From assembly GCA_002633005.1 (NCBI GenBank), contig NMRA01000007.1:1780838-1844837 (forward strand): a stretch of DNA of 64,000 nt, in the 5' to 3' direction. The stretch's first letter is position 1; each line of letters opens with the position of its first letter. The DNA comes from Phoronis australis (Eukaryota; Animalia; Phoronida). The translations under genes were made by a program, and so were the position numbers. The notes under the pieces were generated by a model that searched no databases, had not been told where the DNA came from, and saw only the letters and a list, made by a program, of their open reading frames with translations. Shown here piece by piece: positions 6,140 through 64,000 of the stretch.

Positions 6140-6455
6140 AATACATGTTTGAAAGTTCATGTCCATACTATGGAGGGTTCACATATAGGCTACAGTCCTT
6201 AAGCCTGGACTAATTTTACATTAGCCATGTTCACAGTTTTTTCCTAGGAACACACATTTGCACATTCTATCCAAAAGTGTGAGCTGTTTATGTTACCCTG
6301 TTTACATTCACATATCAGCCTGTGTGGAGCCGCAATGTGTTTTTCTTACTCTCTATTTTTCTTGCCCTGATTACTACTTGTTACTTGTTTTAAATTGTTC
6401 GCCCATGAGTCATACAATTCCAAGCAACTCTTATTCAGTTTTCACTTTTTTGTAG

Positions 6456-35916: not shown

Positions 35917-36553
35917 CAGGTCATCTGCAAATAAAAAGACAAGAGTTGATGAATACAAGGATAAAACTCTCCAAAACTCAATCTTAACAACATGCTTCAC
36001 CAATGTACCTAGTTATCGATGAAACGATTCTTGTTTTCAACACACAATGTAACAGTACTTGTTAATGTCACTGGTAGTACTAGTAATTGTATGAATATTT
36101 TAGGAATTGTTTTCTTTTACAAAAATGAGCGTGATACCTCGATTGATGTTAGCAAGTGTTCATTAGTCTCTGATACCTTAATAAAGAGGCATTTCTGAGA
36201 ATTTATTGCCATTGTAGTTATGCGCACAGCTTTCGATTGAGGTAATAGTAGTAGACTGGAGAGTGGAGTGGAGACCAGACCCAGGGCTGAGTTCAGTAAC
36301 ACTAGAGTCTTGCTAGAAAAGCAAGGATTCACGAGATTCCACAGGATATCGCCGTAGAAAGGGCATAATTTTCATAAGATTTTTGTTGTCGCAACACGAT
36401 TATCGCCAGACGGTCATTGACAGCTATCGTCAAGGTAAGTATCCATTGTGGAGTTGCTTGAACAGTGACAGTGTCAGTGATAGTGCGCGTACCAGTTGGT
36501 CCACCATGTATTTTCGGTGGTTAAGACGAGTCACAAAAGACCACCGTGCTTAC

Positions 36554-36996: not shown

Positions 36997-39900
36997 ATGC
37001 CACTTTATGAAGGTATTGGTTATGGGAGAGAAAAAGATTCTGTAATCCTTGACATTGGAGCGGCGTACACAAAATGCGGATTTGGTGGAGAGAATGGCCC
37101 TCGCTGCATCATCCCATCTGAGGTCAGGCGACCATCAACGGGGCGTGTTGTTAGACTAAGAGAAACATCTACAGAAGACCTTCATGATGTTTTAGTGGAC
37201 TTTCTTTATATTGTTTACTTCAGGTAATTTCTCAGTTTTTAGTGCATACATTATTTTGAAAAGCAGAAAGCTCAGCAAGTTCAGACCACACTGCACAGCC
37301 AAAGGCCGCTCTCATCAGCGGCTCGTGGTTATGTACTATAATGTTATAGCGTTATATAAGCGGCTGATTAGAAGTGCCTGTGTTCCGACTTACCGGTCAA
37401 TATTTTGTCCTTGTTGATGATTTTTGGTCCATTACTTTTGCAGATAAGTTCAAGTCAACCCTACTGATTCAATTTACTTGGCCACATGTTAAAAATTATC
37501 TGTTGACAAATACATTTTGTTGCGACTAAGGTATTTTTTTGTCAGGTGACCTATAATTTTCACATTTAGGACAAAAATAAAAGAGAGATAATTGCAATTT
37601 GTCTATGTATTTAAATCCAATCTATAAATAGCAGGTAACTATTTCCATACATATTGTATAGTATACTTCTTAATAATAAATTGTAAATTAGTTGAGCAGT
37701 TACATTACGCGTATATCACCTGTCTGCCTATGGCATCCGCAGGCAATGTATTGTCTACATATCATCATGATAATGAAAATTAGCTGGCTAGCTAGTTGTA
37801 GATGACATTATATCAAGATACTGGTAGGAATTGATGTTGAAACTCTATAGTGATGTATCCCACAATGACATTATAGCAAAATGTAAAGCGCCCGGCCATC
37901 CTTGTTTTTTTATAACCTCAGGATTCGAATGACTCCTGCCTTGTTTGTTACGGGCGTTTTAAAGAAACAGCCTGATAAATTCCTCTTACTTGTTTCTCAA
38001 TCCTTCTTTAGTAACCAGAAAAAATCAGGTACTTCTAAAACTTTTGAAAATTGATTGCCCTTGCCTGTGTTTTTGTTTTTCATGGAGTATTACAAATTAA
38101 GTTTTGGTTAATGTTATGCAATAAATATTATATTTTCATATCTTTTTTCATAATGTGTATTTCATGTTAAACTTATCAGATTTGAATTATATACCTAGAA
38201 CACAGGCATTTCATTAACTATTTAAAAATTCTGCAAAATCTCACAAGAATTATGATGATGTGTTTTTGTCGTATATAAAATTATGTTCAAGACACTTGAT
38301 TCACTAGGAATTTGTACTTAAAAACTGCTTGTCAGTCCTTCAATCTCTAATTGTAAAGTCATTGAATTCCCACCACTTGAGAATTTTTTCTTGCAAGTCT
38401 TCACCACTGTGATATAGTGTTATGTGCTTTTTGTTCTTTCTCAGACACTTGTTGGTGACTCCGACAGAGAGACGTGTAGTTATTTGCGAGTCTGTACTCA
38501 ACCCATCCGCCAATAGACAGACTCTTGCCAAGGTGCTCTTCAAGCATTACCAAGTTCCTTCAGTGGTATTCTGCCCCACTCACCTGTTAACGCTGTTTAC
38601 CTTGGGTGCCTCGTCGGCCCTCGTTATGGATTCTGGTTACACAGAGACATTTGTTCTGCCTGTGTATGAAGGTATGCCAATACTGAAAGCATGGCAAGCG
38701 TTGCCCTTAGCTGGAAAAGCACTTCATGATAACTTAAAAATCATGCTGTTGGAAGCTGCGACCATATCGACACAAAGGGAAGAGCAGCAGCCACTGTCGT
38801 CAGTAGGGGCATTTGTGGATGAAAAGGTGTTAGAGGACATTAAAGTCCGATGTTGTTTTGTAACAAAAATGGACAGAGCTAAACAAATACAACAAGCTAA
38901 GTTGGAAGAATCTGGCCTGATGCCAACTGAAGGAGGAGCTGAACGTCTGACGCCTCCACCAGATGTCGCCTATCCACTAGATGGCGGTAGGATCGTGCAT
39001 GTCAGTGGGAAGATTAGAGAGGAGACTTGCGAAGTGCTGTTCGAGCAAGACATGGAGGAGAAATCTTTAGCCACCCTCTTACTTGATGCTATACTGAAGG
39101 TTAGAGCTCAGGCTACTTATGAGTTTAGACAAAATTTGGTCTCACTTCACAGTTACTGAACAACAGTTTAGTCGTGTAATTATTATAACACCATAACCTA
39201 GAAATAATATATACTAATTACTTCCTATGTATGTATGCATGCATGCATGCGTGTATGTATGCATGTATGTATAACTAGAAGTTATCGGTATGTTCTCAGA
39301 GACTATGTATTTGATTATTTTTCAGAAATAGTTGTTTGAAGTGTAATACCAAATTTCTGACTCGCACTTTTCATGAAACAGGGCGTAGGTGTTTTTGTCT
39401 AAGGAATGTCATTAGAACTCTTCAAAGGGTTCCAGAGATTACATTGTACACTTCAAGGCAGTTACTCAGGTTGAGTGACAATTAGTGAAGATGACGCTAA
39501 TTGCACGATTCACGTACAGTAATAGACAATTTTTTCTGGGCACTTGTTTCTGAAGTTGGCAAGTATTAAACGCTTTAATTTATTAAAGCCAAAATCTGAA
39601 GTTTCCATATCACAATTATTAAAAGTGTTCAGTATACACCACAATGAAGCTTATGAACTGCTTTGTTCATAAATTCTAGTCTTGGTTTTAGTTCTCCGAT
39701 CATGTGTTAAATACAGTCAAACCACGAGTGTATTGCAAAGTGCTCATTGTTAATCTCTATTGGTGTGATTGCATCGGGCTCCAGTTACAACGAACGTTTT
39801 TGAAAAGTTCTGGGAGGGTTTGTTTTTACCAGGTCCAATTTTGTGTCAAAATATATAACATGTGCAGTTTATTCTGATTACTGGTGAGGATTGATTTGTG

Positions 39901-40279
39901 TTCTAACACGTCTGTTTGAACTGTTTTACAGTGCCCCATAGACATCAGGAAAACGCTCGCTGAGAACTTGGTCATTGTAGGAGGGACATCCATGCTTCCG
40001 GGATTCAAAGCCCGTCTCAAAGCTGAGATTTATGACCTGCTGGATAAACCGCAGTACAAAGACTGTCTGAAGTTGAAAGAAGTCAAATTTCACCAGCCTC
40101 CAGCCAAGGACAACTACACTGCTTGGCTTGGTGGAGCAATATTTGGTGCGCTGGAAGTATTGCCTAGTCGATCTGTCTCGCGAGAGAAGTACCTTCAGAC
40201 TGGAGTGATACCTGATTGGTCGTCGCTGTCTGGTGATGAAGCTGAGGAGGGTGAAAGTTCACCACTGAAATCAAGATAG
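36997..40279 (+). CDS. ACTR10: Actin-related protein 10 (dynactin Arp11 subunit)
   Basis: Exons 36997-37223, 38445-39099, 39932-40279 join in frame. Begins [41 protein letters not shown]; contains [42 protein letters not shown] and IPDW. Confidence 0.96.
39226..39272. repeat. (ATGT/ATGC)n microsatellite in ACTR10 intron 2
   Basis: TATGTATGTATGCATGCATGCATGCGTGTATGTATGCATGTATGTAT. Confidence 0.85.
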
Positions 40280-43452: not shown

Positions 43453-45349
43453 TTGTGTGTCATGAATACTAGGTCCGCCATTTTATGCTAAAGGTGGGGA
43501 GGACAATGAAAAAATCTAAAAACAATAACAAAAGTGGTTTTACACTTTTCATCAAAGATCTCATAACAAATATCTTCAGCAAGTCTTAACTTAAAATACC
43601 CACATCTGCAAGTGAAATGGCTTCATGTGATAACAGGTAGCAGAACTAAACAAGACAACACTAAGTGCAAATGTTCAAAGAAATTTCAACTTGAAAAACA
43701 AGTGTTTAAAAGACACTTTTTCTGAAAACATGTAACACTATACCCAGTGAATATATCTTAACTCACTTAACTTGTTCTTCCCACTGACATTATATACGTG
43801 CACGCACTCACATGTAAGTTGTAACTGGACTACAGTTAAGCGACCAAAATATCGGACATTCTGGTCTATAATTCCTAATTGTACTTCATTGAAAATGTAA
43901 ACAGAAATACAGAATATAACGATGAGTTCTTCTGTTGTTGAACCTGCTTACCACAAGATATAATGCAATTTGACTACAAAGCACTGTATTTTTGATGAAC
44001 CAGCACAGAAGACAAAGCAAGTGCAATGTCACTGCAATGTAATACATCTATTTAACATGACACACACACTATGCTGCTGGGATGAGAGTTGTTGCAAACA
44101 CCAAATGAAACAAAGGAGGGTAAACCGTGAAAAAATTTTAGTTTCAATTTTTTGAACCGTTCTATGTGATTGTCGACTATGGGCCATCATAGGTGCCTAA
44201 ACTGCACTTTATCTCAGCAAAATCAACAGCAAGCACCACATGTGAATGCCATGCACCAGAATGCAACTTGATGAGACTTATTCATAAATTTTTGCTCCAA
44301 ACGCATACAATTTTTAGGTCAGTCCGATATTTAGGTACACTATCTAAATGTCGTGGCTTTTACCATGGACGAGTTAAGCAAGATAGCACGATTGCTTGTG
44401 ATATCTAAAAATGTGTCAATACCATAGCGACAACAAATAACACCAACCCTTGATCACAAATATGTCTACAGCAGTCGCTCTGTAACCAACAGCACCTAGA
44501 CAAATCACGCAACAAAAACAGATACATTTTGAAAACAGCAACCTTTCTGACATCAGAAGTAGTAACAAATCGATAAACTTGTAAAAAACAACTTCACTTA
44601 CGCAACTAGCAGTTCACAGTTAGGACTTTTTCTTTCCAACGTTGAATCATGATTATAACAGGAGAAAACAGTTCACTTTCAAACAATAAATAATCAATTA
44701 TAATCATCAACAGTACAAAGTCAATCACACAACTCGTAGAGGCACCAAATGTAAATAACAAAACCTATAACACATCTCGATGTCATAGTGCTCACCAATC
44801 GAACAAAAGAGGGCATGTTAACTGTAGAGCAAGAACGACTGTCATTCCTGATGTTACACTGAGTAAAAATGTAGATTTCTGGTCATCTTGGAGAAACCCT
44901 TTTTTGGATTAATTGCCATTCCCTTTGAGAATATCAACTATCCATTGAACAATGAAAAAGGTTGTTAATAAACCAAAAAAACGCCCGCATCTTGGTTCTG
45001 CTGTCACTTGCATTGAGCAAACACAATCATGTGATGGACTGTGCTCAATTGTGAGTAATTAAGCTTGCTTTCTGGAAGTGAAAGCAAAACAAAGAAAGGG
45101 GCCATTTGTTAGTGCTGTCACATTCTATTGTTCATTAAGCAGCAAATACACGCCAGGGACCAGGTGCATACAGTTATACACAGAATAGCAATTACACAGT
45201 ACTATCATGCATTGTGTTGCCATTGTTGGACAACAGTTGCAAATATCAAACTTTAATAGTCAGCTTATAAGTTTTGGAGTTTTATACGGCTCAGAACAGG
45301 GGAACCATAATAACACAGAAAAAAATGCAAAAATCTGCAATTATACTAA

Positions 45350-45915
45350 GGACTGTTCCAGTAAAATCTGTATGGGAGGGGGGAAGGCACCTTTTTTTCG
45401 CACCCACCACCCATATTTTTCATTTATTTCTTCAGCCTACCACCCGTAATTTTTTATAAGTTTGAAATGCAACCACCCGTAATTTTTTTTTATTCTTGTG
45501 GTTGACTGCACAGGCGCTTGAGTTTATCTGTTCCTCCATCACCACTAACGTCATTCATTACTAAGAAAACATATGTTTCTTATGTATGGTTATTAGCCAT
45601 CGAGAAATTCGAGCACTTGTGGTTAAATGGTGTTATGGGCATGCCGATGAGATCGGAGGGAGTGAAAAAGTCGGAGCTTTTTGCAAGTTGCATTTTTGTT
45701 TCAGTTTTTGATTCTGTGCGAATTGTTTATAAAATTTACTAAAATTACCCACCATCAAACATTTATGGCCCAATGAAACAACAACGACCTGTAAATTTTT
45801 ATTTTTTTGAAGTACGACCACCAGCCATTTTGAATTTAAATCAAACGCAACCACCCATAAATTTTTATTTCAGTTGCCTTCCCCCCCTCCCACACATATT
45901 TTGCTGGAACAGCCC
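45350..45915. mobile_element. MITE, same terminal family as 31196-31874
   Basis: GGACTGTTCCAGTAAAATCTGTATGGGAGGGGG ... CCCCCCTCCCACACATATTTTGCTGGAACAGCCC, flanked by TAA and TGA. Confidence 0.75.
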
Positions 45916-46055
45916 TGAGAAATGACAGTGTTCCCTTGTAAATATGCCTTTCAAACACATTGCAGCATCACTGTGCTTAAAGTTTGCATTCCTCAGACAT
46001 GACGTTTTATTGCAATCACACTTTTATCATGACATGTTTCCTGGACCACACAGGC

Positions 46056-49000
46056 TCAGATCAGATCTTGCTGGGAACAGGCATCAGCCACCTGTTGAGC
46101 CAATTGACCGAGAGGTGGCTCCTTGTCAGGCAACCTGGTCACGTCTGGATCTGGGCAGACTGGGCAAGTACTGCGGTCATAACACTTACAGCATGTCTGG
46201 AATGAATAAATAATTGGGGGTGACTAGGAGATTCACTTCAGTAACACAACACATTTAAGTTGGGTATTCAGGCATAGTTCCTCTATTAAACACGTTTCCT
46301 TAAACATCACGATGCTGGAAAGGTACACTGGGGAAAGTTGTTACAGTAAAACATATAGACGAAAGGAGTGCACTGCTAAGAACAACAATCAAGGTGAAGT
46401 CCCAGCCACATAGGTTGTAACCAGAGATTTCTTGGTGGGTGCTTACATCACACAATAAACAAAACCAGCTAAGTATTGGACTTTAGTCAATAGTTCCACC
46501 GCGGCGATAAGATTTTTGCCTGCCTTTATCATACACAATCTACTGCAATCATGGACCAATGTGTTACTTTTATGAAGTGATCAATCCAATTTGTGGGAGG
46601 AACTACAATGTTTTGGTGAAGGTCTCCACTCTGTGAATGCTTCCCAGTTTAAATAATTTAATAATACTCCGCAATACATGCCTACTCTCCCCAAAATATC
46701 CAACACTGATTGCACAAATTACCTGGCAATAGATGTGAGCACCCAGCTCCACACATTTCCCACACCTACAGCAGTGTTCCAGAGGAAATCCATCTACATC
46801 ACTCAGCATGCCTGAAACCAGGATAACTAAAGATAATGACAGAGGTAATAGTCTGATATAACGTGCTTACATTTTGAGAACCAGTTTTCTCCTCTCAAAA
46901 TGTGGGCACCTTATATGAGACTTGCCAATGACAGTTCATTAAACATTCAATCAAGTCATGCACTAAATTTACAACGAAACTCAAAAATAAAAGCAGCTGC
47001 TACACTAAGTTTTGCCACAAATTAATTGTTGCTTAGCAAACATAGAAGTGTGGTTAGTGGTACGATCACTTTTAAGAGTGGAAAAAATGCTGAAATCCTA
47101 TTCGCAACAAAGGTTTTATTTTCAGACATCTAAATGCGGTGCAAGGGTCATAATTTCCAGAGGACAAACACTACAGGAGGTTAAATGTTTTTAAGGTAAT
47201 AACCAGGATGACTGCAATTGAAGATGACAGGTTATTTCTGTGTGAAGAGGTTAGATTTGGTAGTAATAAGACATACCTCCGCACCAAGAGAATCGGTACC
47301 GCTTGTTACATGAGTCTTTATTAGGGCATGCCACGATACCAGGGACGCAATTCTTTCTGACCGTGCTCACTTTGCAGCATGGGAACTCGACCACTTTGTC
47401 AAGGTAGGGCAGGACGGAATAACCCTGTTAATAAAGACATCGGAAGATGATTACGAGTACACAGTGTCATTGAAAAAGCCCCACTGAAACAATGCACTCC
47501 ATACTTAGAATTTAGCATACGAAGCCGCAGGTGTCTCTTCAACATATCGGTTCACATTCAAGCGAATAGTTCACATTCAAGCGAAAAATAATCCTTAGAC
47601 TGACATTTCAATGTTACGCAGATATTCAAGACAAGTAAAGAAAATGCAGGTGCCCATCCGAATGCGATTTGCGAGATCCGGAGCACCCTTGCTCGCCCAC
47701 GTGTATACTGCTGTTGTGGAGACATATAAAGCCTCTTAGCTGTGATCCTGTATCCACCCCTGAAATGCTACTTCCAGTGATAAATTTTAGGCAAAAATCT
47801 GAACAAATTATTTTAGTACAAATTCAAACACGTTAACTACTCTTTTGAAAAGACAAATTTTAGTATACATACAAAATAACAAGTATAACAAGTATCACAG
47901 ACCTTCGATGCACTCTTGAACACGTTGAAGAGTAGACATTTGTCTGCAGTCATGTCACTCAGTTTCATTCCTTTCTTGAGAAGAATGTTCAATGGGTTCT
48001 CACAGTTCTTACACTTGCAGCTGGGGCCACACAACTGATGGCGCTGGGCACAGTGACACCTGGTGGTCCGACACCCAAAGTTGCAACGACACCTCATGTT
48101 CGTAAGGCATTTTTTCTTTAGTGGTTTGTGCACTGTGGAACAAAGCATAATTATACACCAGTTTATCTATTGTCATTAATTTCACTTAACACAAGTTAAG
48201 AAATCCACAGATATTGCTTTCCTTGTATGTATCTTAACTAAATTTTGCACCCTGTACATCTTCATAAGGTATTTAAATAATGGAATCAACTCAAAAAGAG
48301 GTTTCTTAGGAAACTCATGAAGCATTTTCCATTCCCATAGTTATATAGCTTTGTATACTTTGTGGTATTTAGATTATTAAGACAAAGGGTCTACTTGAGC
48401 GGTCATGTACACAAGTCAAGTTAACCAATTGCTAATAACTAAGGACCAGTGCTATCACTGGCTGTCATGTAAGTTCCTTCGATCCCAAATAAAACGCGTC
48501 ACAAAAGTAAATACGTTTTGCTATTCAAATCCCAACTATTATGAACACATTTCTGAGCTAGAAGTTGTGAAATGGGCTGTAGCGTGACATGTAGAATATC
48601 AAAGGTCAAAGCCAACCTTCATCTTCACATTCTTCTGATTCAGTAAGAGCTCGCTTCTCTGCAATAGGCATTCCAAGGCAGGCCGGTATCCCGTCATTAA
48701 GCTGGCTATTGGCAACACGATAAAGTCTGGGTGAGAACCTCTTTAGCAAGTCTATGATTTTGGACGCAGGAGTATTCTTCAAAGTAATCTACAATCCAAA
48801 GTTTTAGTAAGCGAATGTCATTATCACTTGCACAACTTTCAAAATGTATGACATTGTGTATTTTATTCTGAAAAACTGCCTTGTAAAACCTCATCTGGTT
48901 TCAACTCCTGTTCCTGAGTACAAAATAGAGACAGCAGATGTAATTGACAGACAGTGCTTCAACACAGCAGAAATGCCAAGGACATGTATATCACATTATT

Positions 49001-52000
49001 GTAGCTCCCCTTGCACTGATTTGTTGTAGAAATAAAACTGGAGTTCACTGAAGTAATGTAATAGTAAGTTGGCGAGTTTATTACAAGATCAATACAACTC
49101 TCAACATGAACGCAGTATTATTCACTAGAGCATCTCCAACGCAATAATCTGGGACAAAACAATAGAGCTGCTATACACTACCAATAGATGGCGGTCTTAT
49201 CACGTTACATCAAACAAGGTAACAAATGCAAGATTTATGATTAAGTGGTTAGAAAAGTTATCAAAATCAGTACAGAATGAATCCTAATACAGTCTGATAA
49301 ATCTTCAATCAAATAAATACCTCAAAGTGAATGAGACAAAGTAAAAATAACTCAAGTCACTGAGCTCAATTAAAGTCGCAGAACACAATTTCGTGAGGTC
49401 AAGACCCACCCAGAAATTATGGTTGGCAAAACGACAAATTATAATTATTGTCTTAGTAACTGCAAATGACTATACCCTGAACCCATCACTAACCATACAA
49501 TCGAGATTGACATAATGAAAGTGGCCCCTCATGAAATCTACCCAGACCCCCCATTACCTAATTGTATTAGAAGGCCCACATTCTGGGCTGAGCTATTAGA
49601 GGGTAATAATTAAACAATTATCTTCTCAGCCAGGAACATAAAACTTTTGTTAGAATGTGTTCACTTACAAAGTCCAACTGGTTCAGTTGTATACTAAGAG
49701 TAGGGATAACAAAGAAGCTGCTTTCACTGACCTTGCATGTCAATTTGGTAAGGCCTTAATTGCGTGTGAACTATACCTCCTCCTGTGATTTACAGTCAAC
49801 AGCAAAATTCTAAACCATTATGTACTCTAGTTACACCCTTCAAGTCCAAAATGTATGAAAGTGGCTCCTCAGCGAGGTCTACTCTGACCACCATTCCCAA
49901 CCATTACCATAAGATGTGATATGCATGATTTCACCACTCCCAAATGGAGGTCTAAATTGAACCCATGACCATATGACATGGTGTGGGTACAAAGAGATGT
50001 AAGCTAACCCCCACCACGAACCACATGATGATACCCACACAAGGCTCCCAAATGAGGTCTACCTTGACAGTAAGTACTAACCAGGTGATGGGGCACGTGC
50101 AGCTGGCCTTCAGTGAGGTCCACACACGTATCCCGACTATATGAAGTCAGCTGGGGTAAGGTGAGGGAGTCGTCAGCAGTCTTGCTCCCCACGTACATGC
50201 AGGGGATCTTGTTCACCTGCACCTTCAAGCAGGTGCAGGCACTACTGAGAGCTGAAAGTATCACAAACATACATTGATAAGGACGCCAGAACATAGCATG
50301 ATGAGAACTCCTACATCGTGTTCAAATTCAGATTATTTTGGAACTTATTTTTTAAACCTTAAGCTAGGGCATGTTACAAAAACATTCAAGCCCACTGTAC
50401 ATCACTATTCAAAATAACAATCTAACACTAATCACTGCATTTTTAGGACAGTCATCCCTGTTTCCTACTCCCCCAACAAAAGAAGATAGTAGAAGAGTAA
50501 AGATTAGTTTGTGCTCTTGTGATCCCAAGAGTCAGGGATAATTCAGCACCACCTATTGGAAAATGAATTGCACAGACATGAATTTGTGGATTAATCTGAA
50601 CTGTTCAGGAATCTTATTATCAGTGCAGAAACAAACGAGTTCGTCTCAATGTTTCTGGTTTAAACCTGGTGATAAAAAGTGCAAGTTTAAACACTGTTTA
50701 TGGACTTGTTTATATATACACCAAATCAGATTGCCACAATTCTGTTGCCAACCAATAATACTCTGAATTCTACATTAGATCAATAAAATCTGAAATAACA
50801 CAAGATGAGCAATGCATGATTTGAAACTGGTTACTTACCCACAATGCTGTCAAAAGGTACTTCTATGATGGCCATGAGACGCTTCCTTGTTGCCATGGTG
50901 TCATCCATGCTGTTTGTTTGGAACTCGTACATCAAGCAACTACATCGACCAAAAGTGAAACGAGGTTGACTAGAGTGGACATACAGACTGAACACCTTTT
51001 CTTTGTAAAGCAACTAGCATTACATAAAAAACTGAATTATAAAATATACAAAAGAAAAGCTACTATCACAACATACCAAAGACAAAAAAACAATTCTTCA
51101 AAGCTTTCTGTGATCAACATAACGAAGAGTGCTTTCACAATAGCACGAAGAAAACTGCAATAATCTTCATGACTAGATTTATGTTTGAGTATATGTACAG
51201 TACAACATACAACATTCTGACATCTCACTAAAACTCAACGCATCACAAGTCATTGCATCGTAAGACAACCAATAGATGCTTTGACAAAATTACAAAATCA
51301 ACACCAAATAAACATTGTAGCCTGAAAGAAAAAATTATTATTGAAACTTGTGAAACATAAAATTTGAATACGGTAATAAAAGTTAATGTGTTACATTGCA
51401 CTAAGCTAACAAGTAGAGAAAGCAAGCACGACTGGAAAATGCAGAATAGTAGCATACCTCTTGGAAAATATTAGCTTAAGCCTGGATATGCGTGCGTCAG
51501 GAGGGGAGTTTTCATACTGCAAACAGAGCACCAATTAAGAGATCTAAGCTACTGGCAAAGCACACAACACACAGGATTGATGAAGCGCATGGCACAGGTT
51601 TACTGTTGGAAGCACTTGGCAGCTCGCAAAGACAAAAGAGGCTTCATACAATTTAATACAATGTAAGAAATGTCAGTTTGCAATTATTAATCCGAGCCTG
51701 CAAAAAGAGGTGTATGGAAAAACACTATCTATGTCTTTAGCCTTAAATATATAAAGAAATAGATGCTAGAATTCTTGTGTTAGTCGATTCGAAGCCAGCC
51801 ACCAGATTGTATGGACTTGAGCATCAAGTAAAAGATTCTAAGCAGTGTCTGATTTAGCAAATACCAGCTCGCTAAACGCGATCTCATATGTAGCTGGTAG
51901 CTCAACTTGTCACATGTAACATAAAGTTCCAAAATGTTTTCTACCATTTCCAAGGTTTTCCAAAGTCTGTGTACAATTAAATACCAACATTATGCAATCG

Positions 52001-55000
52001 ATCCAATCATTGGAAAATCTCATCTATCATTACTAGCCAATCATGGCGTGAGTTATTATTCATGTCACCAATAAAAACTGAATGAGAGTGCTCAACTGTA
52101 TACGTGACCTTTCATGACAACCCCACAACATTTAAAGCAACATGAAAACCAAGTAGTGCAAGCTCTGGTTCAAAGTGAACATGTGAATTTCCATAGCCAC
52201 ATCCCAAATTCAGCTCCCCTCCTTTGAAAAGGAAGAAACCATACTGTGCCACCAATAGATGCGCTGCAAACGTCTGTGAGAAGAGACGGACGAAAAAGGA
52301 CAATCCGTCATGCCCAAAAGAGCCTGTTGATTTTTCACAGCGCAACAATAAAACTTCAGAGGCATTAGAATGACAAACGTCTAAACAATTTTGCAGTACA
52401 ATACTCAAGAATACAGCAACAGTCTGTGAGACAATATCCTAATGATACACAACATTGTGGGCAAATATTCCAGAATCAGAGATGGTGCGGTGGTATTTTG
52501 GGACGTGGCTATTGTCTACAGCGTTGGTAATACACGCCAACAGTTTCAGTACTACACTGCATCCACTCAATGAAGAACTCCTAACACCGACACAACACAA
52601 ACTCAAAATAGACCAGACTTACCATGTAAGAGCCTATGGACAAGGATGAGAAATCAAAGTGCTTGGGTTTCCACTTGGGAGCAACCAGTGTTGTGTCACA
52701 AGCTGTAAAACATAATTAACACCACCCATGTGATACATTAAGATAATACCACCCAGGTGATACATTAAGACAGCGCATACAAAAATGATTTCAAACTTCA
52801 TCCATGCAACTATAACGGATAGGGTAATTCTCCACTTATTTTGCACAAAAAACTCAGCAAAATTTGAATTTTTTCCATTTTTCAAAGGCTGTAAATAATG
52901 GAAATAATGGAAAATTTACCAAACACTGTTTTATTTTCTTAATCTTTATTTTTCGGACAAACATTATAAACCAGAATTTCACTTGTCGGCCAAAATGTAT
53001 AGTAACTACGGTAAGTAATGAATTATCATAAGAAACACTTAGACATATGTATACCAAATGTTAATCACACAAAACTGGGAACTTGACCTTCCCTAACAGC
53101 ATACATTGAAAACTTCACAAAATGTAGAAGGCAAAATGTTCTCCGAGCTAATTAGACACGCACAAACATCATGTCAATCATTAGAGTTGACTCAATTTCA
53201 CAAATAGGACCAATCACAGCGATAGGCGCACAAGTATAGTACATATTTTAATATAGCAACTTAGGTGTACAGCAACAGGAAGCATTGAATAAAAAAAACA
53301 GAGTAATGAAAATTGACACCTCCAGTCACAAGCAATTAGTCATCTTGGAAAAGAACAACAAAACTGATTATACAGCATTGAGGGAGTTCCTTCTGCCATG
53401 GAATAAAAGACCGACATTGGGGAATTTAGTAATATGATATATTGTGAAAAGATTCAAAACAGTGCCATGATATATTTAGAGGAACACCACTATAGATTAC
53501 TCCAATAGACAGGTTCTAATGTAGCGTTCTGTTGGCTCAAGTAAAGGATTTAGGGGATACAGAGTAACTGGTTTCCATGGTTAAAACCTGAAGTCGTAAA
53601 CCAAGAACAATTTCGAGAAAAAACAAGTCGACTAGTACTATAAACCAACCTGCCACAGCATTGGCTTCCGTACTTTGAGGCGAAATCTTTTTCGAGCTAG
53701 AGCTGGAGGCAGTGACTCTGGATGTTTCACACTTTATCATGTCCTTCACACCTAGTGAAGTCTTGACAGTAGAGTTTGAAGGCACTATCTTACTGAGATT
53801 CAAAGGCGGCGCCACCTGGAGCACTGAATTTTTAATACAAATCAGGTCAACATGGATGCCAAAGGTTATTCTACAGCAGGTCGCCAAACTAAAAACGATA
53901 CTGCACTATTTAATCAATTTATCTAACTTTGACTGCAGTAAACTCAAGCATTCCGCAGTCTTGTGGCAAGAACAAAACATGCCTATCACAAAAAGCAGTC
54001 CTGAAAAATTATACTGTGAGGCAAAGTGAATATTAGCTCTGTGTGTTAAACAAACTGGTGATATCAGTTGCATTTCCATGGCAACACATGAAAACCATGC
54101 ACAACCATCCAAATTTTATAACATTAATTTTGTCAGTAGGCGTTCAGTTTAATTACCTGAATATCTGTGAGACAGGAAAGAGGATCAAACAGAACACTAA
54201 GTGCTTACAACCACCCTGTACCTTGCTTTGAATAGTGACTACATTGTCAGCATCATTACACCTTCCTTTATAGCACAGCATATCACAATCTTTATTTCAA
54301 TAGCCCAAAAATAAGAAAATAGAAGAAAAGCGACTTCAAATGAAAGTTTCTTAGCTCCACGGACATGAATATGATGGTGTCAGTGTGTCACGTCCACCAA
54401 CACCCAAGTTTCTTGCACAAACATGTCCCACAACTGTGCTTCTCTGATGTCATGAAGGAAATAAAAAGGTGACAGTGTGCTCAAGTACAGAGTTGGCACA
54501 ACCACCACAAATCCAACAACATTCTTTACTTTACCATAATCCACGGGAGATATACGACAACTCTACACACTAAACACAATGGAGGAGGACTAAAATGTTG
54601 CAAATGGTTGTCCTAATTCTAATAAATATGTACAATAAATTCCCGTAACTCAAAATTAGATAACTGACATACCAACAGAGTGTTTGCGGATGTTCTAATT
54701 TGACAGCTGATTGACTGGTGGGGTTGTTTTTTTGGTGTTTTTGATATGAAGTTGGTAGTTTTAAGCTTTTTAAATTGATCCTAAAAGCTTATTTAAGAAA
54801 TTATCTAATTTCAAATTCTTGGTTGCATTTTACTACAAAGACAAGTAAAAAAAAACATACTAAATGGCAAAAAAATAAAATGTTTTGTGATATAAATTGC
54901 CACAGCAAACGATAATACGGCACCTTGATTCCCATTAGCCTCCTGAACTGCAACAGATGGTCTGCTACCGCTTGCAGTGGACCACGTTGGCACGGTAACA

Positions 55001-58000
55001 AACTCTGACCTCTGACCCATTGGTGACCTCTGGTCAGAGTTCACCAGTGGGGCTGGTGAAATACGCTGTGACCTTGACTTCACGGCAACAAATGGTAAAC
55101 TAGCAGTGGTGATTGCTACAAGAACCCAAAACAGGCAATGTACTCTTTGTACAGCGTTTATGAACAAAAGCATGTTGTGTAGTCAACAATCAAAGAGTGA
55201 ATCGTCGCAAGTTGAGTGATGTTGAAAAATTTGTTTCTGAATTGGGTTAATGCTTTACTTCCCTTGAGAAGAAGCCATTACTTGTCCAGACAAAGATCAT
55301 TGAAAGTGTCACAATGATACACTGATAACCACATCAAGCAACATACGGTATTCAGAGTACAGTATTGTGGAAATGACGCAAATGTCTCATTTCAAAATTA
55401 AATTGGAATATCTGAATAAATCAACACTTTCTTAACCGACATTGATCAGTTTTTGTGCCCAGTCATATCAGTTACGTATGTCCAAAACAGCCTCAAAACA
55501 GTGCCGTTGATCAGCGAAATTCACCCTCAATGCTTAACATCTACTGCAACACTTTTTTGTGATAGACTAAATAATGCTTTAATTGACCAGTTGTTCCTTT
55601 TGTGTTCTAAATCACTCCTCAAACAAGTAAGTAACTTAAGGCAACAAATTATCTCAGTCAGTATAATCTTTGATGCCTTTAATTTTCTTCTAGCTGTACC
55701 ATTGAAAGCACGCCCTTAACACTGCCAAATGCAACATCATGACACTTCTGCGAGCAGACTATTGCTGGACTGCGTCACCAACATACATGCATACAAATGA
55801 CTGTTACCTTACCCGTGTCGGCTAGTTTGGAGAAGTACAACGGCTTGGCCACGGACACTCTGATGAAGCTGTGATCCCCAACAGGTGGAGTCTGTGTCAA
55901 CAGGGTTGGTGGGCGGGGCATCAGTGGAACCAGCGGCACTGGCTGCCAGTGGAAGGGTACACCAGCTGGCATGAACCTGGCGTGCAGCTGAGGGAGGAAG
56001 GGTCCTCGCACCAACACTGGTATGTGTTGCAGAGGCATGTGGGCAACGGGACGGAGTTGGTACATAGGCAATGAGCTCGCAGATGGGGTGCGAACAGCTG
56101 ATGGAAGTGTCTGGCAAGAGGTGAAACTTGTTGGTACTCCTCTGCCTGACCTGTAGTTCAAGCCAGTAGGTGGTTGTGCCACACTGTGGTATGACGTGGG
56201 GGAAATGAAGGACGATGTTGTATATAAGGGAGGTTCTCCATACAAAGGAGGAGAGGACACTGTACGATCCAGTGGTGCCAAATTATTGATGTTAGGTCTT
56301 GGGTTGGAAACAAAGCGAACCTCCTCAAGCAACTCTCGGACAGTTTTGCTACATCCAGCTGGCATATGAGGTTTCACCTGAATTGCTGACTTCTTCTTAG
56401 CAAGACTGGTTACAACTGACAGATCGAGCACCACGTCACCTTGAGAACTTCCTATAATTTGTATGTCGTCGTCGTCATCATCATCATCATCCGCCCCAGA
56501 GGATTTTGTAGCTGGGGTATCCACAATTTCTTTTTCTCTTGGAGTAACCATTGGCAACGTCTTATCCGCTGTGGGTTTGGCTCTGGACTCTGAGCTTGGG
56601 CTGGACGTGAGAAGTGGCGATTCTGGTGGTGACGAACTCAAAGCTATAGTGTTGTTTAAAGACTTCAATTGACACGGGCTTGACTTCGAAATAACCGGTG
56701 CTAGAGGAGAAAATTCTGATTGCCTATTTGATGACATCCCTGGAGAGTAAACATCAAGTGTCGGCCAATTAGAATGTTTCATTGTCTCAAGGCCAAAAGT
56801 TGTGCATGGTGGAGGGTACAGATACGAATCTAAGTTTTGGTCATCCACCGGAGGCTCTCGAGGGTAATGGACTCCGACATCGGCCAGTCGCTCAGGTTCA
56901 AACGGATTCATGCTAAATGGAGATCGTGATCGGCAGTCCATGAAACTGGGGACTTCTTGACCAGATAGATGGGGATATTGCAAGTATGTTGGCACATAGT
57001 GCGGGTATGGCTCATGATACCGATGATAAGTAGAACTGTACTTGTACCGAGTGTCTACTGGGAGCAAAGGATCTGAAAACACATTACGTATAAGAAAGGA
57101 AATCTACTACTAAGTAACAATAGAACCCAACCACCTCCTAACATAAACTGTCACCAAAATCTGAATGAGAGAAGGCACTTGTTTCATCCCCACCCATAAT
57201 TTGCTTTAGTTTTCTAACCCACCACCCACAATTTTTAATTATTTTGGAATACAATCAATCATCACTTTTTTACTCGTTACTGAATTTGCCTAAGTTCAAT
57301 AGGTCCTGTCAACCAAATCCTGACCTAGCTTTCAGATTAATCAGTTCAATGATGTAGGTATAACCATATGCTGTATAAACTACAGATTAAAATTATGTCC
57401 ATTACAGCCAACTTCTAAGTGTTCAGACAAAATGACCCAGAATTCCTTGTTACAACAGCTGGGCAGAAGCCGAATTTATTATCAGAGTTGAAAAAAGATT
57501 TCAGTCTCTGGCGGAGATACCGGATAGGTAAAGTAATTCATTTACTAATAAAAGAAGACACGGCATGCTTGTTGTTATGGAGATATCCATGAATCGTTAT
57601 CAAAGGACTGTAGAGTGCAGTTCAAATTATCCAAAACAGCAAACACGTAGTCTCTAAGTGATTGAGTTACAATAGTTTTTCCTCGTAATCGAGAATGAAG
57701 GGAAAGTTAGTAAAGTGGCCGAGCCATTCTGTAATTAGAATTTTGGTGCCATAATAGTTATTACAAGTGATATTTACATTAGCCGTCATGATGGGTAAAT
57801 AGTATTTAGTCTGATTACTGCAGTCCAATACTATATACCAGTTAGGGTCTAGAGGAAACCCGTTGTTACCAGGATTTTCCGTAGATAAGCCTGATCGATG
57901 AAATGTCCATGAATGTTTATTCGGAAAATTATGCCAAATAAACGCCCATGGGCATTTATTTGGTTTTACAACTTCTGGTGTCAAGTGTCCAAATAGAGGG

Positions 58001-61000
58001 ACGATTATTTGGAAAATTTCCCCTTAAAAGCCCACTCAGCATCAAATTTTTGTCACAAATTCAGTTTTGTGGAGCATTCATTATTTATAAAAAGAAAAAA
58101 GGTGTTGGTGAACTATATATTTATTAAAATAAAATTTAAAACACAGTTTTAAGTAAAAAAATGTCAAAGTCAAGAAAACTATGACTTTCCGTTTAAAAGC
58201 CTCACTTTTCCGAATAGATGCCCGGGCATTTATTTGGCGTTGCTAAAACACCTGAAAATTTTCATTCTCCAAATACATGCCCAATGGGCTCATCTAGTAG
58301 TTTCATGAAAAGTTGCTTTGGTATACGTGTACTTTCAGTTACAAAGTCATAATTCCCATAGCGACAAATTTGAAGATTAAAAAGACCAGCAACCAAGCAT
58401 ACTGTGAACCACATCTGGCAACTTTTTATTTGCTCTGAACGCACTGTGAACCACCTCTGGTAACTTTTTATTTGCTCAGAATGCACTATGAACCACTCAC
58501 AACCTTTTTCAATTGCCTCGCCTCTCACATACAGATTTTCCCTGTAACACCCTGAGCCCCCTGAACTCACATTTATTTTGAAAACAATAAGGGTTTAACT
58601 TAACCGTTTTCAATTTTTACACGAAACCTCATACTCAGAACTTTAGACCTGCTATAAACTTGCTTTGTGTCAAAAATTTATCTCTAAAGACCACTTACAA
58701 TAATGAAATTGAAAATATTACGCGAAGACCCCTTTTGGTTACCAAAGAACCGTACCTTGATGTAAAGCAGGGACACGAGATATGGACGAAGTGGCAGAGT
58801 GTACACTTACCACACCAAGGTACGGCTCTTTGGATCCAAAAGGGATCTTCACTAAGTATTTTCATTATTTAAATGGAGCCTGCCCAGTAACATACATAAT
58901 TGTGAAATAAATCTCGCCTTCATCATTATTTAAATTTGAGGTGAACTCTGGGCTTGGAAATAACTTATAGTTTTTTACCATTCGAGACCAGACTCAACAA
59001 GCTGGCTTGTCATGATGAGTCATTTTATATGACAAGCGCTGTCTGAAGAGTGAAAAAACTGCTAGTTCTGTCCTAGGCTAAAAAACCCATCACATCTGAG
59101 CAACAACTTGGGACCAGTTTTATCGCAAAAAGCGATGTAAATTCAGAGTGTTTTTCTTTGATGGATCGTGCTGTTAAAGTATCTTTAAAAAGAATCTCTC
59201 CTGATTAGTAAGATTTAGTGCAAGATAGCAAGAGGCTGAATACTAGTATTCCAACCCATTCAAGAAAAACTAAAAACTACGTGACCAGCACTTGCGACTG
59301 TAAATGACATTTTTCAATCTATCTACAAGATACTTGCCCGAAACTTTTGGAAATGTGTATCCACTTGGATTGTGATTCAGGGGAGCAACAGCGGCCACCT
59401 GAGGAGCTGGTGTTGGTGCCAACGGGTACTCCAGGGGTGATGAAACGCCTCTAACTGGCGGAATGGAGAATGAACTCGATCTGGTACTCATACAGTTGTC
59501 TTCACACCCATAGTAATATTGAGTAGCAGAACTACAGCTAGTTACAGGTGTGTTATTAATACTTCTGAACCCAGGTGTACACTGAGAAAAAACGGAGAAA
59601 TTTGGCAAAGATTGCGACGAAGAGGCACAGTCATTAGTCTGCAGCTCATGGACAGAGTTTGACTGATACCCGTTGGAACGGTCAATAGTTGGTGGCACTG
59701 TCGGTGGTTCATTTTTCAGAGGATCTGAGGGAACATATGTTGACCTGTCCAACATAGACATTGTTTCTCCACATGTTTCTGTATCCATGGAACATTCAGT
59801 GGACGACTCCACAACACTAGGAAGAGGAGAATCGGGATCAATGCATCTTGATGATGGAAAACAGTTATACCAATGACTATGACAACTCCAGTCCACTACT
59901 CTGTTAGATAACGCATCATCGGTCATCCAGCTAGCACCCTGTACTCCGGATTTGTTCACGTCCTTAGAATGGATCCGTAAATCGTTACTATCATTTATAG
60001 ACACGTCATCACGCATGCAAAAAACATCTCCACTCAACACCTCACCAAAATAAGATTTTTCCCAGTCCAAATCCTGGTTGTCATGGCTACAAGTCTCCGT
60101 TGGCAACGAGTCGCTTTGGTGATATGCGTTCCAGACTGTTCCAGACTGAGTCTCCTCTGGCTTCTCATTACACTCCAGGATACTCTTCACAGCTAAAGCG
60201 GTGTCACTGCTGCTGACAGACAACTCATCCAAGTCTGTGGTTTTGACATAGGGACTGTCACAGTCTGCACCTTCAGATGAAGCCTGAGAGGAAACAGATC
60301 TGTCACTCCACCGATTAACTACCGAGTTACCATCAGTGACAAGTTCGTAGTGGTTTACAGTGTCTTCGTTTCCTTCACATGGTTTGCTAAATGTACTTGA
60401 TTGGCAATGACTGAAGTCCAGACCATGTGAGAGTATTTGAGCATTTTGCTTACAGGTAACATTGCCTTGCTCATAGGTATCACAACTTGGTACTGGTAAA
60501 GACATCTTCCGAGAGGGAATAGCAGTATATGGCGTCTCTGTAAATGTGTCTGGAGCTTCAGTATTGCTCAGTGCATAATGGTCTTCCATACTATGTTTAT
60601 TTTGCCTACAATGACTGAAATGAGAAAAGAATCAGACAAAATAAGAGCAAAAAATGCTCAAAGGTGACACCGACAAAGATTTTAAATATATATAATGGCA
60701 CACAATGGTGGTAACATTCATAGCCCATGTCAAAACTAGATAGTTTACGCAAAATAGGAAACCTCAAAATTTGTCAGCGCCAGTGATTAGCAACCTGAGA
60801 ATTTTGCCAAGTGACCAATGCGACTTGGCATTTCAGCTAAGTGTTGAGAGAGCTCTAGCCATGTCGTGAACACATACTCTACCACAAGAAACTGTAGGAA
60901 CACCTCATTTATCCACCTTCAGTCTTAGCAGGCTTCTATTGTGAGTCAGCATGCGTGAATAATTGGCTGATAAGTCACCTCTGAACTACTTTTGGCTGAA

Positions 61001-61692
61001 TGGATGACCAGGCCATAAAATGATAATTAGCCAAGACCTTGCTGCATTGAATACTGTTAATACCTTCATGGCAATTTTGAAAGAGTGGGCATCTTTTGCT
61101 AGTCTTTCGCCGACAGTGTTTTAAAAAAACTTGATTTACCGACCTCTGATTTTCTGGATTATGCAAACATTAAAATTCAAATTTGCAACGTTTTCAGTTC
61201 TGCCATCATTATGCTATGGAAACAAGCAAAAATTGGCAACAATTCGTACAAGCAACAAAGAATATCTCATAGCATCACCTAGCCTTGGTGGAAAGCTGTA
61301 TATGTACTGTATTGACCCTAATAAATGCCGCGGGCGCTTAGAAAAATTCATTTCACGGAGAAGACGCTTATTGTAGCCTAAGGCAGTTGAAACCCGGTTT
61401 CCGAAACGGGTAAAATCGGAAGCTAGGATTCATCAAATTTACGCTCTGTGACGTATTTGTAGACTATGACAGTCTTTCTACAAAACTGTAGTGCATTGCT
61501 ATCAAACTCCATTGTTAAATTATGATCATTTTTCAAAAAAAAGTGCTGAAATCCCAGGGCAAAAACTTGCAGACTGATACGTTGCTGAATCGCGATCGTC
61601 AATAGGAAAACTTTAATTCTTGAATAAAAATACAGTTTCGACTCAACAAATTACCTGAAATCTTCCTTATGTTTTACAATTTTTAAGTTCAT
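46056..61692 (-). CDS. Uncharacterised ~1376-aa protein: long low-complexity N-terminus, TRF2/HOY1-like PH domain, CXC (CRC/tesmin-like) domain and Cys-rich Zn-binding module
   Basis: Fourteen exons chain in compatible phases with no stops: 61692-61655, 60614-59338, 57072-55813, 55115-54924, 53823-53650, 52702-52623, 51516-51458, 50939-50839, 50251-50082, 48788-48617, 48132-47903, 47424-47277, 46811-46723, 46196-46056(TGA); total 4131 nt. CXC: CRCNFGCRTTRCHCAQRHQLCGPSCKCKNCENP. First exon, 53.7-kb exon and last exon are the least certain; ATG 60589 is an alternative start. Confidence 0.75.
58401..58496. repeat. 42-bp tandem repeat (about 2.3 units)
   Basis: ACTGTGAACCAC.TCTGG.AACTTTTTATTTGCTC.GAA.GC repeated. 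Confidence 0.85.
58712..58862. repeat. Short inverted repeat (hairpin)
   Basis: GAAGACCCCTTTTGGTTACCAAAGAACCGTACCTTGATGT versus ACACCAAGGTACGGCTCTTTGGATCCAAAAGGGATCTTC. Confidence 0.75.
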
Positions 61693-61699
61693 GTGGAGT

Positions 61700-61944
61700 C
61701 CAGATTAACTGCGATTAAGTCCAAATGTGCGCTACATCATACCCCACAACACGAGAAAAATCTCTGGATGAACACACATGTTGTTGTCACGTGACGTTTG
61801 TTTTGAAGTTCGTCTGCGTATGAGAGTGAGTGAGTGAGCGCGTGCGGGTCATCGACAACAGACTTTGTTACAAAAGGCGGAGGATTATGCAAGAAAATGG
61901 CGTTTACTAGATTGTTTTTTGCTTAAACGGCTGCAACGTGCAAG
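61700..61944. promoter_or_regulatory. Putative bidirectional promoter and non-coding first exon of an unidentified + strand gene
   Basis: CpG-richer segment with palindromic GTCACGTGAC (61786-61795), YY1-type AAAATGGCG (~61894), + strand donor AAG|GTGAGT after 61944 and - strand donor CAG|GTAAT at 61655. Confidence 0.55.
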
Positions 61945-62192
61945 GTGAGTGCCGGTTAACTCGCACATTTTGTGTGCACAGGCCGATGGTTGTTAGTTCA
62001 ACTGCTGAGTATAACATTAATAATCCTAGGCTCGATTTAGGCCCTACATGGGTGACGAGCATAACTATCCGGGCTGTGTGAAATTTCTGGGTCTAATGGA
62101 GACACTGACGCAGTGGTACCTATAGTTAGCTAACTCGCTGTATCAAGATTTATCATCAAAATCCGAATTCCTTTTTTCGTGTCTGTCAATAA

Positions 62193-62882
62193 TGTAACAG
62201 GAATGATCTCATCTCTGTCCCTGTATTAGCATGACACCTGTTGGTCATCGTCGGTACTAGTACATTCGTATAATTTGATCATACCTTATTTGGTCAAGAA
62301 CCATCAAGTCCAAGAACTTTAACTTGGTGACTTGTCATTGGCTCGGTTTATCATGTGACACCCTCTATAAATAGCGGGCACCTCGTGGTTTCGGGAGTTC
62401 GGTCACTCTTTCTACCATCGTACAGATGCGACATTTTGGCTCTACCAAATTCAACAGAAGCGGAGCTCGCAGTTATGAATGCGTAAGCCCACTTAGGTTT
62501 AGCCCCTTAAACATTTCAACTATATATCTAAATTCACCCCTACTTACTCCCAAAGCAAGTGATCGTTCTCGTATAAGTTATCCCTGCAGAACGCTGGGGT
62601 TTCATCGTCTAACAACTAAGACGCAATCAGTCACAATGCACGCCCACCGCACTAAAACTAGAATAAAGACCGACTATGTCCGACAACGCTATTCAAGATT
62701 GCCTGTGAGTAAACGTACTAGCGACTGTATTGATTTGTTTAGTTAATAAATGCTGCATACTATATACTACAACTTGGCGATTGTTTCTTTTGACTTAAAA
62801 GTACGTTCGTTTTTAACACTAAAATAGTTCACAAGTCCTGCCCCGGGCTCGATAAAGAGACGCCCCGAGCGTCACGATTACA
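62193..62882 (+). mobile_element. Solo LTR (690 bp), Ty3/gypsy-like
   Basis: Ends TGTAA...TTACA, flanked by a 4-bp direct repeat ATAA (62189-62192 and 62883-62886); internal TATAAATA (~62366) and AATAAA (~62745); no internal retroelement ORF adjacent. Confidence 0.7.
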
Positions 62883-63082
62883 ATAATAATGGCATGCTAA
62901 AGTTTCTTAATGTTCATACTTCAGGAACATAACAATCACGTGTTTTGTATACATAAGCGCACGCCGCAGATCACATCTCGGAAATTTCCGATTTGACGGA
63001 TGACAATGGAATGAGCACAATGAAATTAAACAACGTCGTTTTACAGCTTGTAAGAGCTATAATAAACGTATTTTGAATATTG

Positions 63083-64000
63083 CAATGCATGTGTTCCAAA
63101 ATCTAAATAACATACAGAGTAGTTCTATATTATCCTAACTTGGGTCCTATATTTTGTATTCGTGCGCGCCGAATGAAAGTAATCGTGAGTGTTGCTAAAT
63201 CTCTTATTCTGGGCCAATTTGAAAAATTGTACCAACATTTTTTTTGTCTCCTCTTTTCAAATATTACACTCAAAACTACGTAAAACGCTCTCCATAAAAA
63301 GTACGGTCATCTAGGCTAGATTGTAATCAGCTGATCGTATCCGCATGAGCGAAGCCAGTTATCCTCGCTCCTGACTCGATGAATAGAGCAGCTAGGCGGG
63401 ATCCCTTTGACCGTGAGCTGAGCGTGACACAGCCAAGGTGGATAAATACAGTCAGGTTCAATCGGCCAAACCCCACCGTTTTCCCTGATCGGCAGGGTTT
63501 GGGACAGTCTTATTTAGTGGGAATGTTTATGGCATGGCTGTGTGTAATATTTACACCTTCATGATATGAACATTCCCACTAAATAAGATTGGTTCTAACC
63601 CCAGTGGTTAAGGTAAACGGTGGGGTATGGAAAATTGAACTAGACCGTATTTATCCACCTTGGCTGAGTCGCGCTCGGCTCACGATCAAAGGGATGCCGC
63701 CAAGCTGCTCTAGTCATCGAGTCACGAGCGAGGATAATTGGCTTCGCTCATGCGGATATGATCAGCTGATTACAATCTAGCTAGCAGGCTGTACTTTTTA
63801 TGGAGAGAGTTTTACGTAGTTTTTACTGTAATATTTGAAAAGAGGAGCGAAAACAAATATGAGTACAACTTTGAATTTTTCAAATCGGCCCAGGATAAGA
63901 GATTTTGCAACACAGCAACACTCACGATTACTTTCATTCGGCGCGCACTAATACAAAAATATAGGACCCAAGTTATTTAGATTTTGGAACACATGCATTG
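63083..64000. repeat. Long imperfect palindrome (foldback element), probably extending beyond the window
   Basis: 63083 CAATGCATGTGTTCCAAAATCTAAATAA pairs with the window end; axis at ~63549 (GTGTAA-TAT-TTACAC); 13 mismatches in a ~146-nt core aligned by eye. Confidence 0.92.

Follow-up and report, generated by a model that had tools for sequence, protein, structure and literature searches.

A PH-like domain and a single-CXC zinc module in an unnamed gene family, described from a Phoronis australis locus

CXC domains follow a consensus with a signature Asn after the last Cys (PMC3447885). In MSL2, R543 is described as the sole base-reading residue, placed in the minor groove, and its loss abolishes DNA binding (PMC4248295). 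LIN54 has two tandem CXC domains, from which a Tyr is inserted in the minor groove (PMC4974476). Pho2, Grf10 and HOY1 share an interaction region required to bind partners and to respond to adenine (PMC6200990), and aminoimidazole carboxamide ribotide (AICAR) stimulates the Bas1-Pho2 and Pho4-Pho2 pairings (PMC3901205). Here we describe a gene from a 64,000-nucleotide stretch of Phoronis australis DNA (contig NMRA01000007.1, positions 1,780,838 to 1,844,837; hereafter the window), the predicted product of which carries a PH-like domain and a CXC-containing zinc module behind a long low-complexity tail. The gene runs on the minus strand from 61692 to 46056, and its 14 phase-compatible exons add up to 4131 nt and 1376 amino acids.

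We give about even chances to the reading that this protein is a DNA-binding transcription regulator of an unnamed ancient family, a reading built on sequence conservation, on models of homologues and on analogy with the factors above. The protein is not an orthologue of MSL2, LIN54 or Pho2. As a sequence-only reading of the same DNA had held, the gene is uncharacterised, and no whole-protein match to LIN54, MSL2, KIF4 or EZH2 was obtained. No paper on the animal family or on a prokaryotic CXC was found in the open-access literature.

The CXC-zinc module, the PH-like domain and the tail

Judged by conservation, the CXC domain and the Cys-rich tail of the protein are one module of ~160 residues (residues ~1185-1344; 46155..48091, minus strand), which scored 118.6 bits on the eukaryotic profile. 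The sequence-only reading had counted three compact domains; their order of PH-like, CXC and Cys-rich parts stands, but the count is better given as two, a PH-like domain and a single CXC-plus-zinc module. The CXC domain itself (residues 1189-1221; 47993..48091, minus strand) is of the MSL2 type by consensus match, conservation and alignment to PDB 2lua, with nine Cys and Asn1220. Residues 1189-1220 have the consensus ligand spacing, which recurs in 37 of the 40 eukaryotic copies and in 54 of the 56 from prokaryotes, and the signature Asn is shared by all 40 homologues. When MSL2 in PDB 2lua was aligned, counting from T537, Arg1199 (codon 48061-48059) fell at the position of R543. Arg occupies this position in 33 of the 40 eukaryotic homologues (Lys in 2) and, among the matches listed, in 56 of 56 complete prokaryotic copies, in which the neighbouring residues vary. 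The CXC part of the window protein is basic (+5). With the CXC ligands and the arginine conserved, nucleic-acid binding is probable, in line with what had been proposed earlier. Past the CXC domain come helices, a CC...CxxC...SWC site and an HCxxCxxC knuckle, all conserved in the 40 homologues.

MSL2 (PDB 2lua, 4rkg and 4rkh) is thus likened to the window protein by the single CXC, the nine Cys, the terminal Asn and the R543-type Arg. In contrast to MSL2, the window protein has a PH-like domain before its CXC and ~125 conserved residues with more zinc sites after it, no RING was seen, and the module has prokaryotic homologues. LIN54/tesmin (Pfam TCR, PDB 5fd3) has in common the CXC superfamily and a helix after the CXC, and UniRef labels several homologues 'Tesmin/TSO1-like CXC'; however, the window protein has one CXC, Arg at the Tyr site and a TCR match below the cut-off. 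The C-terminal zinc domain of ZCCHC4 (PDB 6uca) and the CHY/CTCHY part of Pirh2 resemble the distal end through an HCxxCxxC-x6-HCxxCxxC knuckle and a weak fold match, whereas the window protein has no methyltransferase, the match covers the last third of the module, and YC replaces the second HC.

The Pfam scan of 11 single exons gave sub-threshold TCR and SWIM and nothing else, and the composite module was absent from Pfam as a unit in the scan of homologues. No RING was found by Pfam in exons 2 and 3 or in the full-length animal homologues, and no methyltransferase domain in the exons or homologues. No NCBIfam model matched the module in three eukaryotic and four prokaryotic copies, nor did any PADLOC model in six prokaryotic copies. 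Of the PDB sequences, MSL2 CXC was the best match of the family profile (E 0.0075), and nothing was found under E 0.007; ovotransferrin matches were taken as chance. A model of the Exaiptasia module reached a predicted local distance difference test score (pLDDT) of 76. The CXC of a homologue model matched SETD2 pre-SET at Z 3.9 (root-mean-square deviation, rmsd, 1.9; 40 aligned) and EZH2, LIN54 and MSL2 at Z 2.5-3.4, low values for a small domain. For the whole zinc module no solved chain was found at Z >=5, which does not imply a novel fold.

The TRF2/HOY1-type PH-like domain (residues 991-1147, exons 6-10; 48699..52673, minus strand) was assigned by homologue profile, by Pfam in homologues and by the fold of a homologue. 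A profile of 13 homologues that excludes the window domain gave it 125.8 bits, and the domain of Ancoracysta 60.4. The cut-off of 24 for PF24818 (PH_TRF2_HOY1) was reached by Ancoracysta (71.4), two amphioxus proteins (24.5 and 24.1) and Mactra (24.3); three of the five PH exons of the window, scanned singly, gave no match. In the AlphaFold model of the Owenia homologue, made from 17 sequences, the PH core is confident (pLDDT mostly 74-95) and the N-terminus of low confidence. The predicted template modelling score (pTM) is 0.41, so the model suggests that the domains are mutually independent. This PH model matched PH-fold chains at Z 7-10.8. Behind the maize RDR2 match that is weighed below stand SYCP2-type 5iwz (Z 9.7), SSRP1-N (9.3), SPT16 and REC114 (8.8); several of the top matches (5iwz, SSRP1-N and REC114) are nuclear chromatin adaptors. 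A basic patch in the domain is conserved (positions 1019, 1021, 1026 and 1027), and a D-x-x-E/G-Q motif at 1105-1110 resembles, by eye, the D302/E305/Q308 spacing of the Pho2-type region.

The likeness to Pho2, Grf10 and HOY1 lies in the homologues' PH domains that reach the PF24818 cut-off and in an overall plan that combines a DNA-binding part with an interaction domain and an activation tail that is not conserved. The window family differs in lacking a homeodomain, no homeobox family being found by Pfam in 11 exon translations or 49 homologues, and its animal copies are edge members of PF24818. To our knowledge, the TRF2/HOY1-type PH domain is on record solely from fungi and plants, and its placement in animals would be new in that respect.

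Residues 1-985 contain 15% Ser, 10% Pro and 11% Asp+Glu, which bears out the ~980 residues of Ser/Pro/acidic low complexity seen in the sequence-only reading; the acidic stretches reach a net charge of -25 over residues 101-300. The N-terminal tails show no similarity between phyla, with a best E of 0.044 for the window protein. A putative CtBP-like short motif, VLDLS, was matched at residues 653-657 (56417..56431, minus strand). The pattern [PV]xDL[ST], which we take to be a CtBP-binding motif class and which was widened after inspection, occurs in 5 of 15 pre-PH regions versus 0.9 in shuffles. This gives weak backing to the earlier idea of a corepressor adaptor.

Distribution in eukaryotes and prokaryotes

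When the 76 amino acids of exon 11 were searched with HMMER, 68 proteins were matched. In 15 of these the similarity extends to the PH segment, and in 39 to the part that follows the CXC. Names came from a look-up of 30 of the 68 clusters and from word-based homologue searches. The named carriers are Potamilus, Sinanodonta, Mactra, Owenia and Branchiostoma among bivalves, annelid and lancelet; three spiders, two ticks, a pseudoscorpion, Tachypleus and two decapods among arthropods; and Exaiptasia, Actinostola, four oomycete genera and Ancoracysta. The layout of tail, PH-like domain, CXC and zinc part was recovered in bivalves, an annelid, chelicerates and amphioxus; the PH domain plus zinc module is present also in a cnidarian and in the protist Ancoracysta. 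Full-length animal members have 1090-1668 residues and an identical order. The Palaemon member lacks a PH domain, and that of Eriocheir is weak. Besides its PH-bearing gene, amphioxus has several free-standing modules of ~230 residues (P0013, P0082, P0083, P0084 and P0004).

In the module tree, from which 13 of 65 rows were left out, the animals group together (94/91), as do the oomycete-type copies (98/92); the position of the window protein is among protostomes (96/88), on a long branch. The tree fits vertical descent. The pairing of the window protein with Owenia was set aside as a long-branch join. Since the family spans several animal phyla, a cnidarian and a protist with a tree of vertical-descent type, the earlier description as lineage-restricted is wrong; the same architecture occurs in molluscs, an annelid, chelicerates and amphioxus, and the module is shared more widely, with oomycetes, bacteria and archaea. 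Vertebrates, insects and nematodes were not among the names found for the 30 of 68 clusters looked up with the 76-residue query, which weakly suggests absence from these groups; nor did the word-based searches name any, but these, with 0, 1 and 6 hits, have no bearing on absence. The unnamed family probably dates back to the cnidarian-bilaterian split or beyond, and was perhaps hidden by the choice of model organisms. The oomycete-type copies fall into two groups, with and without RING-H2 (P0005, P0023, P0056, P0089 and relatives). Two further proteins of 1169 and 1899 residues (P0001 and P0002) contain 18 and 24 CXC-like repeats without the distal zinc part. No viral copy of the module was found in the search.

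In the Atlas, the whole module matched a 155-residue cluster (86% bacterial) with a feature score of 0.92 and TM 0.61; a rotifer cluster scored 0.90 and an ascomycete lead 0.79. An Atlas search with P0022 gave no usable match. A search with a pattern for the distal knuckle, in which the R543 position is not included, yielded at least 120 prokaryotic loci, and the module is encoded at 73 of the 120 listed, 68 of them distinct. The bacterial hosts belong to Chloroflexota, Desulfobacterota, Planctomycetota, Bacteroidota, Gammaproteobacteria, Chlamydiae and Clostridia, and the archaeal hosts to Methanosarcinales. A profile made from prokaryotic copies only recovered eukaryotic modules end to end, with 65-91 bits for six homologues, and the window protein with 34.6 bits over positions 4-141 of 155. 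By these profile matches, the animal module is homologous from end to end with a free-standing prokaryotic protein of ~155 residues. The occurrence of an MSL2-type CXC with a putative DNA-reading arginine in bacteria and archaea bears on the origin of this chromatin fold, and with its 155 residues the prokaryotic form lends itself to direct structural and binding studies.

The prokaryotic copies form one clade (100/100) in which phyla are mixed. The mixing fits what horizontal spread would give. No conserved operon was found, the largest neighbour clusters covering 4 of the 56 loci with flanks, and most other neighbours are unrelated. In raw counts, four archaeal loci of the 56 (L036, L055, L057 and L064) are embedded in BREX, immediately ahead of pglZ and brxL, with an open reading frame (ORF) of 115-123 residues just upstream of the module gene and with pglX shown further upstream in L055. 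One locus lies between jetB and jetC of Wadjet (L006) and one before hsdR of type I restriction (L002). Six of the 56, again in raw counts, stand directly behind IS66 transposases, four of them in one genome. These four (L007, L008, L012 and L026; the module copy of L007 is at 3674-4147) are near-identical and share a contig of an uncultured member of the Chlamydiae. Each is separated by 94 nt from the IS66 transposase that it follows, and they are likely a passenger gene of an insertion element. At another locus (L081, 3851-5056), two divergent module copies overlap on opposite strands according to the ORF calls.

Proposed function and its rivals

As a transcription regulator, the protein would act through the module, in which the CXC may bind three zinc ions and Arg1199 may enter the DNA minor groove as R543 of MSL2 does. 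Helices and additional zinc sites accompany the CXC all the way from bacteria to animals and would extend or clamp this contact, so that a single CXC may suffice. The PH-like domain would bind partner factors and could be switched by a phosphorylated small ligand, like the region of Pho2, Grf10 and HOY1, with the zinc module occupying the place of their homeodomain. The unconserved tail of ~980 residues would supply activation or corepressor contacts.

Several points weigh against this reading. The R526 position is variable, and the prokaryotic module carries a net negative charge (mean -4.6). The animal PH scores sit at the PF24818 cut-off, with Potamilus (20.3) and Sinanodonta (15.7) below it and no match in the remaining homologues; moreover, the Pfam and fold results for the PH domain are those of homologues and not of the spliced window protein. 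That PF24818 corresponds to the Pho2 interaction region is our assumption, suggested by the family name. The best PH fold match is an RNA polymerase and that of the distal zinc part an RNA enzyme, and the CaaX and RING features of oomycetes point to membranes or ubiquitin in those organisms; both matters lead to other readings of the protein.

The fold matches could be taken to mean that the protein works in small-RNA or RNA-processing pathways as an adaptor that binds RNA, with a PH domain like that of RNA-dependent RNA polymerases (RdRPs) and distal knuckles that bind RNA like ZCCHC4, a reading that we regard as unlikely. ZmRDR2 residues 106-307 were the top match of the PH model (Foldseek E 1.1e-4, Z 10.8, rmsd 3.6, 125 aligned, 20% identity), and this 'PH' or beta-barrel-like domain (PDB 7w84 and 7w82) is the closest solved fold for that part. 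In PMC13650160 the matched region goes by the name of PH domain and belongs to the N-terminal part that guides RNA. ZCCHC4 heads the matches of the zinc module, being the best for its distal part (E 0.08, Z 3.6, rmsd 4.1, 63 aligned). Animal RdRPs are patchy and date from the cnidarian-bilaterian ancestor (PMC6396948), loosely like the pattern of the window family. However, RDR2 is ahead of the next fold match by just 1.1 Z, the tested RNA-binding part of RDR2 is its RRM and not the PH domain (PMC8713982), and the window protein has neither an RRM nor a polymerase domain; fold likeness alone shows no function. No nematode is among the named homologues, though most nematodes have RdRPs, and the residue by which the CXC fold is known to read DNA is the arginine that is invariant here. 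Alternatively, the protein could be a scaffold for other proteins, perhaps one of membranes or of ubiquitin signalling, with a zinc module that binds protein and a PH domain that binds phosphoinositides or phosphopeptides. RING-H2 together with the module in Globisporangium and 6 further proteins (49 scanned), CaaX-like C-terminal ends in 19 of 21 oomycete-type copies versus 0 of 38 others, weak zinc-domain fold matches to IBR/RING2 and Pirh2, and the conserved basic patch of the PH domain would agree with this. We give the scaffold only a small chance, as the window protein showed no RING, CaaX or transmembrane part by Pfam on exons and sequence inspection, MSL2 itself combines RING with a DNA-binding CXC, and prokaryotes, in which the pathways invoked are missing, keep the arginine without exception.

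Beyond the regulator reading, a broader history can be drawn, which we offer as a long shot. The module would be an unrecognised free-standing DNA-reading domain, mobile among prokaryotes in anti-phage operons and insertion elements, and the counterpart, possibly the source, of the MSL2/LIN54/pre-SET CXC fold. Joined in early eukaryotes to a Pho2-type PH domain, it would have given metabolite-switched transcription factors that were kept in cnidarians, molluscs, annelids, chelicerates and amphioxus and lost in vertebrates and insects.

Gene model, transcription and neighbourhood

The RNA evidence comes from three stranded raw RNA runs of one study under the same species label, of which ~18-19% each was read. 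Depth over the exons was ~2-6 and similar along the chain in the three runs. In purely exonic bins, first mates were on the plus strand only, which in most stranded libraries matches minus-strand RNA. RNA joints matched at least 9 of the 12 model introns inside 45930-60750, with 4-9 reads each when the three runs were summed. The gene is real, spliced and weakly expressed. A single gene of 14 exons and ~1376 residues, the chain first assembled from the letters, was thus reproduced by phase and RNA joints, with exon 1 doubtful. Among the best-supported 40 of 82 read variants, 13 of the 24 in exons were synonymous versus 8.1 expected (P 0.028), and 11 of 20 in the low-complexity exons (P 0.037), a synonymous excess that gives modest backing to coding constraint, low-complexity exons included.

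The introns are GT-AG on the minus strand, apart from that at 57073-59337, which is probably GC-AG. Its joint (59338>57072) has an intron length of 2265, exactly that of the model, but the read cut is placed 2 bases off; reads at this intron fit best with another letter at 59339. Exon 1 (61655..61692, 12 codons) is in phase with exon 2 and sits in a multi-copy patch, which is taken as a repeat because RNA depth reaches 40-80 on each strand and the reads show many deviating letters; its joint was not among the best 15 of 74 listed in this high-depth, two-strand area. Without exon 1, the protein would likely start at the ATG at 60589-60587, which has A at -3 and G at +4 and gives 1355 residues.

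Exon 2 (59338..60614), acidic, Ser-rich and of low complexity, has the GC donor and was placed by stranded RNA depth, composition and the 2265-nt skip to exon 3 (55813..57072), which is Pro/Ser-rich with a poly-Asp run and has joints on both sides and a synonymous excess. For exon 4 (54924..55115), the acceptor came from the joint 55813>55115 and the donor from phase; for exon 5 (53650..53823), the donor from the joint 53650>52702 and the acceptor from phase. The PH-like domain begins in exon 6 (52623..52702, joints on both sides) and continues through exon 7 (51458..51516), with its acceptor from a joint and its donor by phase and profile score, exon 8 (50839..50939), with its donor from a joint, and exon 9 (50082..50251, joints on both sides). 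The acceptor of exon 8 was chosen by profile score as the best of four chains (132 versus 120, 117 and 101 bits). Exon 10 (48617..48788; acceptor from a joint, donor by phase) holds the closing helix of the PH-like domain and a linker, and exon 11 (47903..48132; donor from a joint, Pfam TCR at E 0.008, below the cut-off) the CXC domain and a helical linker. Exon 12 (47277..47424) supplies CC, CxxxxxC and SWC of the middle zinc site, by conservation and with joints on both sides, exon 13 (46723..46811, joints on both sides) the HCxxCxxC knuckle, and exon 14 (46056..46196, joint 46723>46196) the knuckle end, the tail and the stop codon, without a CaaX end. All these exons are on the minus strand. 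An alternative chain of 1324 residues, with an 8-nt micro-exon at 54164-54157, an exon at 52273-52240 and an acceptor at 51000, was set aside in view of RNA joints and profile scores.

The introns 54924>53823, 51458>50939 and 48617>48132 were not among the RNA joints listed, which were all but two rows. As the first and the last of these join the tail to the PH-like domain and the PH-like domain to the CXC, and as amphioxus has free-standing modules, the chain might be suspected of running together two or more genes or of being wrongly joined. We consider this very improbable: the reading phase is kept across each of the two joins and their ends are AG and GT, homologues of 1090-1668 residues in three phyla have the identical order and similar PH-CXC spacing, and the RNA depth is similar along the chain.

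Elsewhere in the window, an L27 plus PDZ protein gene (6371-20000, plus strand), a poly(A) polymerase head family gene (28068-36012, minus strand) and an actin family gene (38413-40276, plus strand) were seen, which we take to be PALS1/MPP5-like, CCA-adding TRNT1-like and ACTR10-like, respectively. A high-copy repeat at 45347-45916, 140 nt past the stop codon, has RNA depth >200 on both strands. A patchwork of repeats covers 60860-63111, over the presumed promoter and exon 1, and reads show copies without internal parts. The end of the window (63083-64000) is a long palindromic element with nested inverted arms of 229 nt at 84% and 29-45 nt at 93-100%, which resembles a miniature inverted-repeat transposable element and has RNA reads on both strands.

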